Source: Nitrosopumilus sp.
GTDB lineage: Archaea; Thermoproteota; Nitrososphaeria; Nitrososphaerales; Nitrosopumilaceae
Direction: 5' to 3'
Length of the DNA stretch: 64,000 nt
NCBI GenBank assembly: GCA_029861785.1
Contig: JAOTYR010000001.1
Coordinates: 2,636-66,635 of the forward strand
Both the position numbers and the translations under genes were made by a program. This document shows positions 9,925 through 55,816 of the stretch, one piece after another. A model generated the notes under the pieces. The model was not told where the DNA came from and searched no databases. It saw only the letters and a program-made list of their open reading frames with translations. Numbering within the stretch: the first letter of the stretch is position 1; the number at the start of each line of letters is the position of its first letter.

Positions 9925-10091
9925 AAATTCGAAAAGCAATTCTTTGTATAAATTGATTTAGATGAAATGTAAAATTGATATAAACGCATGAAATGATTAT
10001 TACCTTATCTAGTATCTCATACTAAATAAAAAAGATTTCTGATACTGAAATAATTTTCAAAAAATAAATACCACGTTTACCAAATAAAGTC

Positions 10092-10772
10092 GTGACAGGA
10101 GATAATTTTTCTCTTTTTGGGAGAATAGTAAATCAGTCTAAAAATCCTCAAAGTGGTTTAATTGTTTCTGCATTTGACAAGGATGGAGCAAGTGATTCTG
10201 ACTTTTTAGGAAAGAGCGTTACAGATGCATCAGGAAAATTTTCTATAGAGTTTAATACACAAAAGTTTAAAAAATGGTGGGAACTTTTTGAGGAAACTCC
10301 AGATGTATACTTGGTGATTCATGACCAACAAGGTCTTGAATTGTTAAAAACTCGCATAAAGAGTACCAAGCAGGAAATAGAATATCTAATAAAACTTCAA
10401 GAAAATGATCCAGATCCAAACTCAATTGATATCTATCAGGATAACTTCAACCGGTTTGGAGGTCAACTTGGAAGCGTAGGAATGACAATGGATTGGGAAA
10501 ACTCTATTAATCTAGATACTTTAGCTAGTGGACAACTTTCACCAGAAGTCAGAAAAAGACTTGAAGAATTCCGTGATGGTTACCTTGATAGGAGAAACAT
10601 GTTCAATATTCTTACGTCAATAATTAATGGAACTACTCTTTCCCTAGCTGAGGAACGTGACTTTAACATTATTGGTTACGATGGGGCACAAGTTCCAAGA
10701 TTGCCTCGACGCCAACGTTACAATCAAGTAATAATTTGGCCAAGAGAGGAGAGTAGTGAAAATTGGGAATAA
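10092..10772 (+). CDS. Hypothetical protein with an N-terminal transthyretin/carboxypeptidase-regulatory-like beta-sandwich
   Basis: GTG start. The pattern GRIVNQ..GLIVSAFDKD..SDFLGKSVTDASGKFSIEF...PDVYLVIHD is typical of transthyretin-like folds. The C-terminal ~120 aa are unrecognised. The stop lies 10 nt inside the next ORF. Confidence 0.55.
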   Translation: MTGDNFSLFGRIVNQSKNPQSGLIVSAFDKDGASDSDFLGKSVTDASGKFSIEFNTQKFKKWWELFEETPDVYLVIHDQQGLELLKTRIKSTKQEIEYLIKLQENDPDPNSIDIYQDNFNRFGGQLGSVGMTMDWENSINLDTLASGQLSPEVRKRLEEFRDGYLDRRNMFNILTSIINGTTLSLAEERDFNIIGYDGAQVPRLPRRQRYNQVIIWPREESSENWE

Positions 10773-13366
10773 TTTATGGTACAATAAAACTTCCGCCAAG
10801 AAATGAACGATATGAAATTATTGAAAACGATATTGTAAAAACAGCAGATGTCTGCATTATAGGATCAGGAGCGGCAGGTTCAGTTCTCTCAAAAGAATTG
10901 GCAGAAAAAGGTCTCAAAGTTGTCCTATTGGAGAGAGGGGGGTATTATGAAGGAAAAGATATGAATCAACGTGATGTTGACATGATTCCACTTTTATGGA
11001 AAAATTCTGGATTCCAATTTGATGACAGTCTTAAACTTGCAATTGCTCAAGGGACATGTCTTGGGGGTTCAACAATAATTAATGATGCTGTGTGTTTTGA
11101 TCCTCCAGAAAAAGTAATTGATGAATGGAATAGTATGGGAGCAAATTTCCCATATCAGGAAATCCAAAACCACACAAACAAAGTAAATACTACACTTAGT
11201 GTATCAGAAGCAACAGATGAAGAACTAAATCGAAATAACCAAATGCTTAGAAATGGGGCCAAAAAAATTGGTCTCAAGCATCATCACAAGAATCAGAGAA
11301 ACTGCATTAATTGCATGCAGTGCGGATATTGTCATCTAGGTTGTCACTATGAAACTAAACAAGATATGTTGCATACCTATCTCCATAAAGCGCTAAATGA
11401 TCCCAATTCAGATCTTTCAATCTATTGTAATTGTTACATCGATACTTTGGAGAAAAATGAAAACGGAATCATTCAGGGAGTAGAGGGAACTTTTCGAGAT
11501 TCTGGAGGAAATGATTCCTTTCGTATTAGAGTAAATGCAAAAATAGTAATTATTAGTGCAGGGACGATTGCCTCATCAAAAATTTTACTTCAAAATGGAA
11601 TTGCTCAGAAAACATCTGGTACAGGTCTATGTTTTCATCCTTCTCCAACTGTAGTGGCGGAATTTGACAAAGAAATAAAGGGAAATGAGGGAGTTCCGAT
11701 GGCATATACTGTTCATGATTTTGGAGTTACCAGATCCGATAATGAAACATGGGACAGCTATGAATTTTCAGGAAGGGAATTCTTGATAGAGAGCATATTT
11801 TTACCTATTTTGCAATTTTCAACAGCAATCCCAGTTGCGCTAAATGATCATTTGCAAATTATGAGAAGGTTGAATAATCTTACAATGGCAGGAATTGTAG
11901 TTCGTGATAGAAACAATGGTAAAGTTTCACTTACCCCAACTGGAAGAGCAAGTGTTCAATACACATTAGGTGATGAAGAACTAGAGTCAATGATAATGGG
12001 AATAAAATTACTAGCCAAGATGTGGTTTGAGCTTGGAGCAAAGAGAATAATTACCTCAATGACTACAATGAGCATTATCAATTCTGAAGATGAAATTCCA
12101 CAACTTGTTGATGAAATAAGAAAAAATCGACAATATCTATATCTTGGTTCTGCACATCCACAATCAGGAAATAAAATAGGCCTCGATAAAGAAACTTCTG
12201 TTGTAGATTCTAATTGTAAAGTACATGGATTTCAAAATCTTTTTGTTTGTGATGCAAGCGTATTTCCTACTGCTGTTGGTGTTAATCCTCAAATTACAGT
12301 AATGACAATTGCCTCAATTATAGCTGAAAGAATCAGCAATAATTGGAGTCAATTTAATTCAATTCCAATTTCCGAATCTCTAGGGAATACATGTAGTTTA
12401 TCCCAACCCTTCTATTGTCTTCAAAAAAACCTTTCAGAAATGTTTGATTCACTTGATAATAATGGTAAGGCACTTGATCTTATTAATGACGAAGATGAAA
12501 AAGCCAACGATAACAACTGGTCATTTGATCCGCAAAATCTTACAATTCAAAATAACACATATTGGAAGGGATTGTTTCCCCGTAATGGAAATATCCCTAA
12601 CACTCTTACAGCTTTTCTTGGAGGATTTTGGAAAAGATTCACAGAGGATTCATCTGGAGAAAATAGTTCCAAAGTAAAGGGAATTACTCATCCATTTGAG
12701 CTGGGAGTTTTTGCCAAAAACAAAGCGTTTGATAAGGTAATTGATGGGTTTGGAAAAGTCATTATTTTAGACTATTCTGAGCCAGGATATGACCAATTTC
12801 ATGATGTGTTAAAATTTGTCGATAAAAATATGATTTTAGGTAAGGCATTTTTTCGAGATCCTCAAAAAGGACAAGAAATGCTTACATTTTCCATGGCTAG
12901 AAAATATCCACTTGAATTTATGACTGAAGAAGACCACTCAATGCTATATTCCAAGATGAGCAAACCTGATTCCTTTGATAGTATAGTCGGGATTTGGGAA
13001 GGGCAGTTAGTTTCTGACTCTATAATGACACCTCCAGTTTTTGTATTTCGTTATTATTTTGATTCTGAGAACAAACTTCAAAACGATTATTTGTTTAATG
13101 GAATACTTTCAGGGACTGCCAAGGTAAATGAAGAAGATGATCATTATGAAATGCAAGACGTTACCCAGATATTTCATGATGAGCTTCGTCAGGTAAACAA
13201 GGATTTATTGATCGGAAAATATTGTACTGAACCCAGTGAGATAACTCGTTGGATTCCAAATGGATTAAGTTTTCTAAATGTAGATCGGGAAAGTAATAAG
13301 GTATGTTTACCATATATTTTAAAAAGAATTGGCGAAGAGGAAGCTTATAGAGGATATAGACCCTAA
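10763..13366 (+). CDS. GMC-family FAD oxidoreductase with a ~330-aa C-terminal extension (two lipocalin-like GXWXG/DUF4334-like modules)
   Basis: FAD Rossmann motif VCIIGSGAAGSVLSKELAEKGLKVVLLERG. Cys-rich insert CINCMQCGYCHLGCHY. GMC C-terminal catalytic region HPQSGNKIG..VVDSNCKVHGFQNLFVCDASVFP..NPQITV. TTG start, with no in-frame ATG before the Rossmann motif. Confidence 0.8.
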   Translation: MGIIYGTIKLPPRNERYEIIENDIVKTADVCIIGSGAAGSVLSKELAEKGLKVVLLERGGYYEGKDMNQRDVDMIPLLWKNSGFQFDDSLKLAIAQGTCLGGSTIINDAVCFDPPEKVIDEWNSMGANFPYQEIQNHTNKVNTTLSVSEATDEELNRNNQMLRNGAKKIGLKHHHKNQRNCINCMQCGYCHLGCHYETKQDMLHTYLHKALNDPNSDLSIYCNCYIDTLEKNENGIIQGVEGTFRDSGGNDSFRIRVNAKIVIISAGTIASSKILLQNGIAQKTSGTGLCFHPSPTVVAEFDKEIKGNEGVPMAYTVHDFGVTRSDNETWDSYEFSGREFLIESIFLPILQFSTAIPVALNDHLQIMRRLNNLTMAGIVVRDRNNGKVSLTPTGRASVQYTLGDEELESMIMGIKLLAKMWFELGAKRIITSMTTMSIINSEDEIPQLVDEIRKNRQYLYLGSAHPQSGNKIGLDKETSVVDSNCKVHGFQNLFVCDASVFPTAVGVNPQITVMTIASIIAERISNNWSQFNSIPISESLGNTCSLSQPFYCLQKNLSEMFDSLDNNGKALDLINDEDEKANDNNWSFDPQNLTIQNNTYWKGLFPRNGNIPNTLTAFLGGFWKRFTEDSSGENSSKVKGITHPFELGVFAKNKAFDKVIDGFGKVIILDYSEPGYDQFHDVLKFVDKNMILGKAFFRDPQKGQEMLTFSMARKYPLEFMTEEDHSMLYSKMSKPDSFDSIVGIWEGQLVSDSIMTPPVFVFRYYFDSENKLQNDYLFNGILSGTAKVNEEDDHYEMQDVTQIFHDELRQVNKDLLIGKYCTEPSEITRWIPNGLSFLNVDRESNKVCLPYILKRIGEEEAYRGYRP

Positions 13367-13382
13367 ACATTTTTGATAATTT

Positions 13383-13760
13383 ATGAGATATTCAGATGAA
13401 ATTGTTTATGAGCTAAAGCTGAAAAGTGGCAGCCAAAAAATTATCAGTGCATTAATTTAGAAAAAAATAACAATATTCTTACAAGTTTAAAGGGAATTTG
13501 TAGTAACAGACGAGGAGGATATTACGATGCAAACCAAGATCTTATTGTTCCTTTCAATTTAGAATATTATAAAAAAAATGGTCACGCCAAACCTTGCAGT
13601 ACGGAGGTGGATAACTGATTGGTTTAATCAAAATGCATTAGAACCCTTTGTTGATGATTTTAAACGAATATTTCCAGTTCCTATTATCAGAGAGAAAAGT
13701 GGCCTGTTGGAACAGATTACAGATACATTTCAGTTTAGATGGCCCAGACTTTCTAAATAG
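13383..13760 (+). pseudogene. Possible decayed ORF in three fragments joined at poly-A runs
   Basis: Frame-0 ORF 13383..13460 (MRYSDEIVYELKLKSGSQK...). Start-less frame-2 open stretch 13412..13618 (69 codons). Frame-0 ORF 13578..13760. The frame switches coincide with the A6 run (13435-13440) and the A8 run (13571-13578). No family recognised. Confidence 0.25.
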
Positions 13761-13961
13761 ACTGGGTTTAGTTTTATTCGAGTTGAAAAAATAAACAAAC
13801 ACAAATTGGTTTATTCTTTATTTTAATAAGAACAGGCTAATCAACGTCTCAAATTGTTTATCTAGCGAAACACAGTAACTTCATACAATTTTATAAATTT
13901 ACATATTAATCAAAATTAGATAAATAATAAATCTAATTTTAAATTAATTATTAATTTTTTG

Positions 13962-16097
13962 TTATCGAACATAATTATCATTTACTTCATAAACAAATAC
14001 GCCAATTAGAACTCGATCTTCGTTCACAAATGATGGCGAACCATAAACAAATCTGAATGGTCCTTCACCATCTGTAGGATATTTTATGTCCTTACCATAT
14101 AAAGGAGTGAGTCCAGGCCTGTAGGTTTCAGCCTGTACCTCAGTATTTCTTATATCCACATAAGATAAGGTAGAGAATGGAAATAGTGTTCCCAATAAGG
14201 TGTCATTCCAAAAATAATCTGTTCCGCTTCTCCCATCAGAGTGTACATATTTTTGAACAGGTTCTCCTGCAATCCGCATAAACCATTGCTTTTTTGATTC
14301 GTCTCCTCCTCCATTAAGAACATACACAGGTTTATCTACTCCAGAATCAACCCTTTGACCAGCAACAAAAACCAATACATAGTCAGCTCCCATCTCTTGA
14401 AGAGTATTCCATGCTTCATCAGGAGGACTAAGCAGAGTCTGCGCAATTACTTTGATTCGCGTATGATTGCCAGTGAAATTATCTGCTAGAGTAGCTCTAT
14501 CGGACATTGTAGTTATCCAATACCCATAATCCCACCATGCAGCGACTACTGAGTCTTCAGGAGTGTTTGTGTTTAGCCACTCAAATGATCCCTTCCAATC
14601 ATTTGTGACAACTCCAAAATTTGAACCACCATTCAGGATTGTAAGAGGAGCCTTTGCACTATTTATCCAATTTGAATTTGTAGGAAATACCAGAGGTATT
14701 AAAAGAAAAATAATTATTACTCCCAAAAATGAGATTTTTAAAATATTTTTTGTACGTAGATTTTCATAAAAATTTTTGTTATTAAAAATCTCTTTAGTTA
14801 AAATTGATAATCCAATGGATGATAATATAATTAGTGCAATAGAAGCAAAAACTTCTAACCTAATAAACGCCGAGCTAACATAAACTCCTGTTAAACCTAT
14901 TATTAAAGAAAATACCATCATGTCATTTCTGATATAAGAACTGCTATCAGATTTTTTACTCAGGATAATCCAAATTCCTAGTCCTGCAAAAATCATTAAA
15001 ATAGAATGAAAGAAAAAGGATTGTGTAAGTGTTGTTGTTGCGTGTTCTGCTACTGAATCAACTAATGCATTGTCAGTAGTAAGAAATGGATTTATTGCGT
15101 TTAAATAACGAAAACTGGGTAAAGGCAAAATTCTAGCTTCTTCATTAATTATCAATGAAAAGGAACCAATAATTATTAGCATAAACAAAAAGATCAACCC
15201 ATTTCTTGTTTTATTCTTGATTTTACTGATTTTTTGAATAAATATGCAAGATATTAAAAATCCAGTAGGGATAATTAAAGAAAAACCGCCAATGCCAAAT
15301 ACAAAACCTGTTCCAGGTCTTTCAAATATTAGTACAGTTAACAAAAATGAGGATACAAAAATAGGAATGCTCCAAATGATAAATTCGTGATCTTTTCTGA
15401 CAAAGGGAAGTACTAAAATAAACATTCCAATTGGAATTACAAAAAATTGTATTCCCCCCCAAGAAGCTAGTCCAAAAGCCAAAATTATACCTCCTACAAT
15501 TAATTTAATAATTGCAATTTTTTTATTTTCTGATTTTATTCCACTAAGAAAAAAGTACATTCCCAATAATCCATAAAATAGACCTAATGGTTCTGATTTG
15601 AACCACCCCATTGTTCCTCTCAACAAAATTGGCACAGATACTGAATATAATATAGCTGCAAAAAGTCCCGCAGTTGTTCCCCCTATTACTCGAACTAGAG
15701 CAAAAATTACTATGACAGTTAATGAACCAAAAACTACAGGAAATAAAATAGTAAAGTCATAAAGACTAGAGTCTCCCCCAAAAATTTGATATGTAATGGC
15801 TGCTGTAAAGTGAAGCATTATTTGGGATGTTGCAGATACATTTCTTCCTTCTGGATACCAGCTCAAATCATCATGCCAATCAAAGTATTCTGAATAGCCA
15901 TTTTCTACAATGAATTCTGTTGCTCTAAAATTAAAGAAAGGATCAAATTCGTTTAGCTCAAAACCATAATCTGCACCTTGAGATCTAATCATAAAAGATA
16001 TTGAAAACGATAAAACTAGTACCCCAATCACCAATAGATGATTTAACCTGAAATCAAATATGCCAATCTTTAATATTTGGGCTTGGGAATTCATCAA
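13962..16097 (-). CDS. aglB: Archaeal oligosaccharyltransferase AglB (STT3 family)
   Basis: 711 aa. Multi-TM N-terminal half and a C-terminal domain with the WWDYGYW catalytic motif. Confidence 0.9.
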   Translation of the reverse strand: MMNSQAQILKIGIFDFRLNHLLVIGVLVLSFSISFMIRSQGADYGFELNEFDPFFNFRATEFIVENGYSEYFDWHDDLSWYPEGRNVSATSQIMLHFTAAITYQIFGGDSSLYDFTILFPVVFGSLTVIVIFALVRVIGGTTAGLFAAILYSVSVPILLRGTMGWFKSEPLGLFYGLLGMYFFLSGIKSENKKIAIIKLIVGGIILAFGLASWGGIQFFVIPIGMFILVLPFVRKDHEFIIWSIPIFVSSFLLTVLIFERPGTGFVFGIGGFSLIIPTGFLISCIFIQKISKIKNKTRNGLIFLFMLIIIGSFSLIINEEARILPLPSFRYLNAINPFLTTDNALVDSVAEHATTTLTQSFFFHSILMIFAGLGIWIILSKKSDSSSYIRNDMMVFSLIIGLTGVYVSSAFIRLEVFASIALIILSSIGLSILTKEIFNNKNFYENLRTKNILKISFLGVIIIFLLIPLVFPTNSNWINSAKAPLTILNGGSNFGVVTNDWKGSFEWLNTNTPEDSVVAAWWDYGYWITTMSDRATLADNFTGNHTRIKVIAQTLLSPPDEAWNTLQEMGADYVLVFVAGQRVDSGVDKPVYVLNGGGDESKKQWFMRIAGEPVQKYVHSDGRSGTDYFWNDTLLGTLFPFSTLSYVDIRNTEVQAETYRPGLTPLYGKDIKYPTDGEGPFRFVYGSPSFVNEDRVLIGVFVYEVNDNYVR

Positions 16098-24014: not shown

Positions 24015-24330
24015 GGTAGTAGGGAGGATCAGGGTGCCAGCCGTGCCCTATTCTGAAACCGGCTATATGCAGAGATCAGTAACTGTTGGGTAAATCTCTA
24101 GATTGGTAATTCCCGCTTGGTGTGCGGAAATGAAATCACGCCGAGGCGGGTGGTTACAGGACTAGAACTATCCGAAGGGATAACTTCTAAGACCGAACCA
24201 TCGAAAGGGATGAGGTCCGGGAGGGAGCAATCCTAAGGTGGAGCATCCACGCTTCCTCGTCTACGTGGCGGATCTTGTATGCCTTGAAATGGGGCTATCC
24301 GTTTAGACTGGAACCAACAGACCTGCTACC
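24015..24330 (+). ncRNA. Signal recognition particle RNA (archaeal 7S RNA)
   Basis: ~316-nt GC-rich island in AT-rich DNA. The ends pair (5' GGTAGTAGG with 3' CCTGCTACC). The helix-8 motif GAGGTCCGGGAGGGAGCAATCCTAAGG resembles the recalled archaeal consensus (GGCCCGGAAGGGAGCAACGGUAGG). No ORF. Confidence 0.85.
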
Positions 24331-30987: not shown

Positions 30988-30999
30988 TAATGATTTGTA

Positions 31000-31084
31000 T
31001 GCGGGAGGTGGGATTTGAACCCACGAACTCCTAGAAGATAAGGATCTGAACCTTACACCGTTGGCCAGGCTGGGTGACTCCCGC
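31000..31084 (-). tRNA. tRNA-Leu (anticodon CAG), class II with a long variable arm
   Basis: Manual fold: acceptor GCGGGAG/CUCCCGC, 3-bp D stem, anticodon stem UAAGG/CCUUA with loop UUCAGAU, long variable arm, T arm GUGGG-UUCAAAU-CCCAC. No encoded CCA and no intron. Confidence 0.9.
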
Positions 31085-31165
31085 AATTTGAAACTTGAAA
31101 ATCTAGAATAAGTTTCTTTATTACACAGTTTTTTAAAATCGATCCAAGTAACTTACTGTGATAAA

Positions 31166-37037: not shown

Positions 37038-37110
37038 AGCCCGGTAGTGTAGCGGTCAAGCATAGGGGCCTTTGGAGCCCTTGACCCCAGTTCGAGTCTG
37101 GGCCGGGCTA
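37038..37110 (+). tRNA. tRNA-Gln (anticodon TTG)
   Basis: Manual fold: acceptor AGCCCGG/CCGGGCU, D arm, anticodon stem GGGGC/GCCCU with loop CUUUGGA, T arm CCCAG-UUCGAGU-CUGGG, discriminator A. Confidence 0.9.
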
Positions 37111-37122
37111 CTAGTCTGCTTT

Positions 37123-55742: not shown

Positions 55743-55816
55743 GCGGAGTTAGTTTAGTCTGGTATGACGTCAGCTTCCCAAGCTGAAGGCCGCGGGTTCA
55801 AATCCCGCACTCCGCA
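55743..55816 (+). tRNA. tRNA-Gly (anticodon CCC)
   Basis: Manual fold: acceptor GCGGAGU/ACUCCGC, anticodon stem UCAGC/GCUGA with loop UUCCCAA, T arm GCGGG-UUCAAAU-CCCGC, discriminator A. Confidence 0.9.

Follow-up and report, generated by a model that had tools for sequence, protein, structure and literature searches.

The window analysed here, a stretch of 64,000 nucleotides (nt) from a Nitrosopumilus sp. genome (GenBank assembly GCA_029861785.1, contig JAOTYR010000001.1, positions 2,636 to 66,635), encodes a GMC oxidoreductase that carries a long C-terminal tail. The open reading frame (ORF; 10763..13366, + strand) is uninterrupted and specifies 867 amino acids (aa), and the identical GMC-tail protein has also been called on a public metagenome contig. 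The predicted structure supports the view that the tail is an autonomous module, in which a helical cap is followed by two calycin (lipocalin/nitrobindin)-like antiparallel beta-barrels. This module represents an undescribed domain family with a known fold, which has neither a Pfam or NCBIfam model nor a solved sequence relative.

The GMC region of the protein closes with NPQITVMTIASIIAERI (aa 508–524), and 340 residues come after it (aa 528–867; 12344..13363, +); in tail numbering, residue n corresponds to protein residue n + 527. About 16 poorly predicted linker residues lead into the helical cap (aa 544–585, tail ~17–58; 12392..12517, +), which reached a predicted local distance difference test (pLDDT) of 89–96 in the second of two AlphaFold2 models, and whose C-x4-QP-x-YC motif is kept in the archaeal fused and stand-alone forms. 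Barrel 1 (aa 586–716; 12518..12910, +), with approximately 10 strands assigned by DSSP over tail residues 59–189, contains the motifs YWKG, GGFWKRF and GITHPFE as well as the hairpin FHDVLKFVDKNMILGKAF (nt 12788–12859). A linker helix predicted in both models (aa 722–731, tail 195–204; 12926..12955, +) lies within FMTEEDHSMLYSKM and precedes barrel 2 (aa 743–857; 12989..13333, +), which has about nine strands (tail 216–330 by DSSP), opens with GIWEG and contains the hairpin FHDELRQVNKDLLIGKY (nt 13169–13234). Across the wider family M193 and D197 are near-invariant or invariant, and G216, W218, E280 and G291 of barrel 2 are near-invariant (all in tail numbering). A preliminary description of this DNA had noticed, from position 12365 (aa 535) onwards, an extension of roughly this length with two segments of parallel endings, and all the strings that it quoted lie at the implied places: YDQFHDVLKFVDKNMILGKAFFRD at aa 676–699 (nt 12788–12859) and EMLTFSMAR at aa 705–713 in the first segment, IFHDELRQVNKDLLIGKYCTEP at aa 803–824 (nt 13169–13234) and VCLPYILKR at aa 847–855 in the second, and GIWEG, the sole G.W.G of the protein, at aa 743–747 (nt 12989–13003).

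The same description had envisaged two beta-barrels, and structure prediction bears this out. A first AlphaFold2 run on the tail with 13 close sequences gave a moderate pLDDT of 70 and was replaced by a run with 24 diverse family sequences, for which the pLDDT was 85.8 and the predicted template-modelling (TM) score (pTM) 0.85. The latter model shows two runs of 10 and 9 strands, which at the level of prediction agree with the closed antiparallel up-and-down barrel of 8–10 strands that marks a calycin/lipocalin-like fold. A first-strand motif of the G-x-W type is represented by GIWEG on the first strand of barrel 2 (tail 216–222), and an early strand of barrel 1 carries YWKG; W74, G76, G216 and W218 (tail numbering) show little or no variation in the wider family. 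Foldseek searches of the PDB placed 2O62 (DUF3598; E 3.4e-7) at the top, followed by 5YVF (BFA1; E 1.8e-5), both with a probability of ~1.0 and with alignments of ~300 columns that cover both barrels. Single barrels matched 4MVE, 4GZV, Can f 1, tear lipocalin, retinol-binding protein (RBP) and odorant-binding proteins with probabilities of 0.95–1.0 and target-normalised TM-scores of 0.36–0.56 (0.56 for 4MVE). The first AlphaFold2 model gave the same picture. The fold was assigned, from the predicted structure, per barrel and for the tandem arrangement.

The tandem-barrel proteins of the DUF3598 family, 2O62 of Nostoc punctiforme and Arabidopsis BFA1 (5YVF), share with the tail the arrangement of two consecutive calycin-like antiparallel barrels in one chain of ~270–320 residues. 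They differ from it in that there is no sequence match to PF12204 or to the PDB chains and in the relative orientation of the barrels (TM 0.22–0.27, root-mean-square deviation 18–20 Å); moreover, the module of the window protein bears an additional helical cap and is attached to an enzyme. A structure-based survey placed 2O62 in the lipocalin superfamily beside nitrobindin and DUF1794 (PMC4532494). Lipocalins such as tear lipocalin (3EYC), Can f 1, RBP, the Bacteroides lipocalin-family protein 4GZV and 4MVE likewise resemble the window barrels in having an up-and-down beta-barrel and a first-strand motif of the G-x-W type, but they have 8 strands against 9–10 here, they show no sequence similarity, and the window protein is presumably intracellular.

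The assignment of the tail to GXWXG (PF14231) and DUF4334 (PF14232), as proposed in the preliminary description, was not upheld. Pfam-A scans up to E = 10 took in the whole protein, the tail, one hidden Markov model (HMM) consensus per barrel, eight diverse sequences of single barrels and ~30 relatives; neither family matched the protein, its tail, the barrel consensuses or the full-length relatives, and for the whole protein and the tail alone no tail match of any kind was found in Pfam-A or NCBIfam. The one trace was DUF4334 at E 0.19 in a single trimmed relative, absent on full-length proteins. DUF3598 (PF12204) also had no match in any of the scans, so that the likeness to this family is structural only. 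PDB sequence searches with two profiles returned chance matches only, to OspI/ORF169b (E 0.15) and ribosomal protein S4 (E 1.7). Searches of the literature on DUF4334/GXWXG, on GMC proteins in Thaumarchaeota and on 4MVE/Tcur_1030 yielded nothing functional.

An ancient internal duplication is the probable origin of the two barrels. Plain self-BLASTP of the tail found no repeat. For a profile–profile comparison the family was divided into two modules, with 91 sequences for the first and 79 for the second, and hhalign aligned the two with a score of 28.6 (P 1.6e-4, probability 51%); the aligned part consists of exactly the two hairpins that had been noticed earlier, with the common pattern FhD.lK.Vd.d.iiGK. 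Under relaxed settings the alignment extends collinearly, pairing WKGxFPxD (module 1) with WEGxLVSD (module 2). All 150 column-shuffled controls stayed below the observed score, at 20.0 or less, and the profile run in reverse gave 15.4; when the shuffling kept blocks of 8 columns, by which the motif is partly kept, 4 of 150 controls attained the observed score. The occurrence of two motifs in the same order in both barrels is consistent with an old duplication but is weak evidence on its own. The earlier claim that the two modules are related is supported by this collinear motif pair and by the shuffled and reversed controls.

A word-index search yielded 24 relatives, all of them metagenomic, and an exhaustive HMMER profile search extended the family to 209 clusters at 50% identity (E <= 1e-3). 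Most of the long proteins combine a GMC domain with the tail. In P0050 a region that looks TTR-like (transthyretin-like), as judged by eye and with no Pfam TTR match, precedes both in one chain, while in P0017 and P0032 a TTR-like domain is joined to the tail without GMC. The module is further found behind a START/SRPBCC domain (Polyketide_cyc2; P0037), behind a caspase domain (Peptidase_C14; P0045, P0058) and as a stand-alone protein of ~320 aa (P0028, a cluster of 91 members); several proteins match barrel 1 only. Bacterial giants (P0036, P0040) contain GMC, the tail and a domain of ~250 aa with no Pfam match, with or without a second tail, and a second copy of barrel 1 was detected in both. 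In a PADLOC scan the window proteins had no defence-system match; the sole matches came from the caspase domains of two relatives.

Pattern scans of species-representative genomes revealed 26 loci of the archaeal type, mostly in Nitrososphaeraceae and other Nitrososphaerales; the remaining hosts are one Nitrosopumilaceae metagenome-assembled genome (MAG), a Nitrosarchaeum fragment, Methanoperedens and a Thermoplasmatota MAG. The same scans found at least 207 places encoding a relative of the bacterial type, and among the matches listed (80 of 207) Acidobacteriota (Bryobacterales, Solibacteraceae) prevail overwhelmingly. The fusion is thus not confined to ammonia-oxidising archaea, a restriction that had been raised for survey in the preliminary description, since the module is frequent in Acidobacteriota and also occurs in Methanoperedens and Thermoplasmatota MAGs. 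In comparison with the window protein the bacterial relatives show 25–30% identity in the barrels and 21–22% in the GMC core, the latter being of a different, cholesterol-oxidase-like type, and therefore the same module has been joined to two GMC subfamilies. Judged by this range of partners, the double-barrel module is evolutionarily mobile, as it occurs alone, on two GMC subfamilies and together with START/SRPBCC, transthyretin-like and caspase domains.

Several observations concern the bacterial branch. Acidobacteriota encode proteins of ~1180–1470 aa in which a cholesterol-oxidase-like GMC domain is followed by the double barrel, the ~250-aa domain with no Pfam match and sometimes a second double barrel (L031 4045–7596; L101 2063–3454; P0036, P0040, P0047). 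A gene for a VAO/ALO-type FAD oxidase lies upstream in 22 of the 80 loci listed. One locus of the acidobacterial GMC-barrel type (L043) is labelled Bifidobacteriaceae, which is probably a binning or labelling error of a public MAG.

The flavoenzyme to which the tail is attached in the window, a flavin-dependent alcohol oxidoreductase, is probably active, to judge from its conserved motifs. The core (aa 28–527; 10844..12343, +) belongs to the GMC oxidoreductases, as both Pfam domains exceed their gathering scores: GMC_oxred_N (PF00732, 3.5e-34) covers aa 32–293 with 119 bits against a cut-off of 23, and GMC_oxred_C (PF05199, 1.4e-22) covers aa 386–517 with 81.2 bits against 24.6. The GxGxxG motif that binds flavin adenine dinucleotide (FAD) is GSGAAG (aa 34–39) and is kept in the relatives aligned. 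The catalytic pair consists of His465 (SAHPQ; nt 12155–12157) and Asn508 (GVNPQ; nt 12284–12286), both kept in all relatives aligned. In an ungapped alignment with the same 43-residue spacing they coincide with the residues of the cellobiose dehydrogenase motifs SNHW and GNPQ, namely His689 and Asn732. Among solved structures, cellobiose dehydrogenase is also nearest to the core in sequence (E 5e-17), and the two enzymes (4QI7 and 1KDG for the former) share a GMC core with the His/Asn pair and an accessory non-catalytic domain. The accessory domain of cellobiose dehydrogenase is, however, an N-terminal haem b cytochrome, whereas in the window protein a double barrel lacking conserved haem ligands occupies the C-terminus, and the TTR-like beta-sandwich has a gene of its own. 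Inside the GMC domain the archaeal relatives keep a cysteine cluster, C181-x2-C184-x2-C187-x2-C190-x3-C194 (aa 181–194; 11303..11344, +), which may bind an iron–sulphur (Fe-S) cluster or a metal; in bacterial relatives the five-Cys cluster is replaced by CxxCxxCxxxC, with weak Fer4 matches in Pfam. Some FAD-dependent dehydrogenase complexes hold an Fe-S cluster at the equivalent site. No signal peptide was seen in the N-terminus of the GMC-tail protein, as judged by reading rather than with a prediction tool.

Directly upstream lies the gene of a partner protein of 226 aa (10092..10772, +), which combines an N-terminal transthyretin (TTR)-like beta-sandwich with ~120 aa that have no recognised fold. 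Its Pfam matches, to TTR-52 and CarboxypepD_reg, are weak; its N-terminal domain is homologous to the N-terminus of P0017 (E 4e-15), which is there fused straight to the tail, and P0032 carries a likewise fused TTR-like domain. The GMC-tail ORF starts with TTG, and its first 10 nt coincide with the end of the upstream ORF, stop codon included. A homolog of the upstream ORF, the constant neighbour of the GMC-tail gene, is found directly upstream of this gene, or overlapping it, in 17–18 of the 26 archaeal loci. In the window the two genes, TTR-like and GMC-double-barrel, form a translationally coupled two-gene cassette.

Larger Nitrososphaeraceae loci hold extra copies of these genes. A stand-alone tail lies downstream in L001 and L003, the latter of which also has a TTR-GMC fusion, and clusters consisting of a TTR-like–GMC fusion (772 aa, without the tail), a further GMC gene and a stand-alone double barrel occupy 1–8960 of L188 (also L189–L191) and 2260–10386 of L003. 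A GH5 (PF00150) gene stands beside the stand-alone double barrel in L188 only and was found neither in the other 26 archaeal loci nor in the window; as this association is not general, it was kept out of the inference. In ~10 archaeal loci the GMC/double-barrel genes are accompanied by an ORF of ~350 aa that has no Pfam match and a conserved ...HPIVFINTSNHAMAEHDTN..LWKWEY... segment (e.g., L010 7003–8148; L015 7114–8139; L025 477–1535; L188 4630–5700), which is missing from the window.

Comparison with related genomes indicates that the two-gene cassette is an insertion between ribE and AglB in this Nitrosopumilaceae genome. A segment of ~3.9 kb (9965..13900), whose content is only the TTR-like gene, the GMC-tail gene and a gene relic, is missing from the closest relatives: blastn similarity to L108–L110 ends at 9962–9966 and restarts at 13893–13967. 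In these three relatives the gene order is trmB-Tes-AglB-ribE-ribB-ribH, with a gap of 70–100 nt between AglB and ribE. The window organism belongs to the Nitrosopumilaceae and stands close to Nitrosarchaeum (Tes 97–99% identical), and among the 80 Nitrosopumilaceae Tes loci examined none contains the cassette. AglB, Tes and riboflavin genes stand beside the GMC-tail gene in none of the 26 related archaeal loci. The closeness to AglB and Tes, from which the preliminary description had speculated about membrane lipids, is therefore an accident of the landing site. Flanking direct repeats, a tRNA or an integrase were not seen at the borders of the insertion. The relic (13575..13799, +) lies downstream of the intact gene and is what remains of another, decayed double-barrel gene, of the sort present as extra copies in larger Nitrososphaeraceae loci. 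Over 75 aa it matches the hairpin of barrel 2 and the long loop of Nitrososphaera-type tails, interrupted by an in-frame stop at ~13758 (tblastn: aa 456–529 of P0021, E 2e-12; P0027, E 1e-9), and a gene caller annotated its first 60 codons (13578–13760) as a small ORF.

As for the role of the double barrel, we consider it quite possible, though short of probable, that it confers specificity on the GMC enzyme by binding a substrate or ligand. The substrate range of GMC enzymes is usually set by accessory loops or domains. In such a mechanism the GMC domain would oxidise an alcohol group by hydride transfer to FAD via the His465/Asn508 pair, the double barrel would capture a poorly soluble small molecule and hold it at the entrance of the active site, and the TTR-like protein would act as a further partner. 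We infer the binding role from the calycin-like fold, from the START/SRPBCC fusion and from the stand-alone copies beside GMC genes; START/SRPBCC, fused to the tail in P0037, is a hydrophobic-ligand domain, which makes the idea of a hydrophobic ligand plausible. Ligand binding, the hydrophobicity of the ligand and co-operation with the active site are what this model would add to the domain boundaries, predicted fold, conservation, modularity, gene linkage and insertion observed or computed here. Several points weigh against it. Whole-tail Foldseek TM-scores are low (0.22–0.27, against 0.4–0.56 for single barrels), because the relative barrel orientation differs between query and targets, and BFA1, which ranks among the top two structural matches, serves as a scaffold in assembly and does not carry a ligand. 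In close orthologs conservation of the barrels nearly equals that of the catalytic domain (~60% versus ~64%), and D62, K97, D154, K157, R186, D197 and E280 (tail numbering) vary little or not at all across the family. Such a pattern would be explained at least as well by a fixed interface with another protein, or by a catalytic site, as by a generic hydrophobic pocket.

A scaffold for protein–protein contacts as in BFA1, to which the TTR-like partner or a different subunit would bind, or through which the protein would oligomerise, with no small molecule bound, would accord with the rank of BFA1 as the second-best structural match, with the recurrence of the TTR-like protein, sometimes fused directly to the tail without GMC, and with the strong conservation of surface-type charged residues. 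We regard it as unlikely, since the module also occurs with START/SRPBCC, with caspase or alone, with no TTR-like domain in the chain, and its likeness to BFA1 is no better than that to 2O62 and to ligand-binding lipocalins. The high conservation among orthologs, as well as the invariant or nearly invariant polar residues of the repeated hairpin (FHD/YDV...K, HDE), of GGFWKRF and of THP, could alternatively reflect a second catalytic domain of calycin fold that processes the carbonyl product of the GMC enzyme, e.g., an isomerase, cyclase or hydratase, and Foldseek gave weak matches to the two-barrel Diels-Alderases Fsa2 and CghA. The probability of these matches is only 0.11–0.21, though, the THP histidine is missing in the bacterial branch (GITSDTD) and no known catalytic motif was recognised in the tail, which leaves this role quite unlikely. 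It is improbable that the tail is a true but very divergent, tandem-duplicated member of GXWXG and DUF4334. Both families are uncharacterised, and barrel 2 shares with them an exact GxWxG at its start; DUF4334 proteins presumably also have a similar hairpin, 'YD..P..D.F+.vd.d..lG'. The single E 0.19 match to a trimmed relative did not recur, however, the Pfam scans described above gave no further match to either family, and architecture and size differ, GXWXG/DUF4334 proteins being beta-rich single units of ~170–190 aa against a tandem module of 340 aa. Binding of a redox cofactor by the barrels (haem, as in nitrobindin), with electrons accepted from FAD or from the Cys cluster in the manner of the cytochrome domain of cellobiose dehydrogenase, is very improbable, because no His, Met or Cys of either barrel is conserved family-wide, and the archaeal His116 is missing in the bacterial branch. 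The facts that would speak for such a role are the cellobiose dehydrogenase-like core, the resemblance of 2O62 to haem-binding nitrobindin and the conserved Cys cluster at the place where related dehydrogenases hold their Fe-S cluster. Hardly credible, finally, is a modification of thaumarchaeal membrane lipids by the enzyme together with the adjoining Tes and AglB: proximity in this window only and a lipocalin-like fold favour it, but the synteny of the 26 related loci, of the 80 Tes loci and of the insertion between AglB and ribE already contradicts it, and the family is common in Acidobacteriota.

Returning to the ligand-binding reading, a broader proposal can be built around it, which we put forward as speculative and doubtful. 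An unrecognised, horizontally mobile oxidation system common to soil Nitrososphaerales and Acidobacteriota (Bryobacterales/Solibacteraceae) might be made up of the GMC enzyme with its double barrel, the TTR-like protein and, where loci are larger, the ~350-aa protein. The double barrel, a new calycin-type family in this view, would be a carrier dedicated to a hydrophobic or amphipathic alcohol (e.g., a lipid, terpenoid or glycolipid), or a second catalytic domain acting on it. GMC oxidoreductases are widely used and studied, and the tandem barrel lies on two of their subfamilies, in archaea and in abundant soil Acidobacteriota. The proteins of this family bear public names such as 'choline dehydrogenase-like flavoprotein', 'GMC oxidoreductase' or 'hypothetical protein'. 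Defining the tail would add a new domain family and provide a handle on the substrate of this vaguely named set of enzymes, while the tempting link to archaeal tetraether-lipid genes has been removed by the analysis.

Some minor observations were made along the way. A contig with a 97%-identical thaumarchaeal Tes (L123) is labelled Alphaproteobacteria, probably through a binning or labelling error of a public MAG. The window also contains ordinary features that bear out its archaeal origin, namely a signal recognition particle (SRP) RNA of the archaeal type (24017–24328, +) and the tRNAs Leu-CAG (30999–31085, −), Gln-TTG (37038–37111, +) and Gly-CCC (55743–55816, +).

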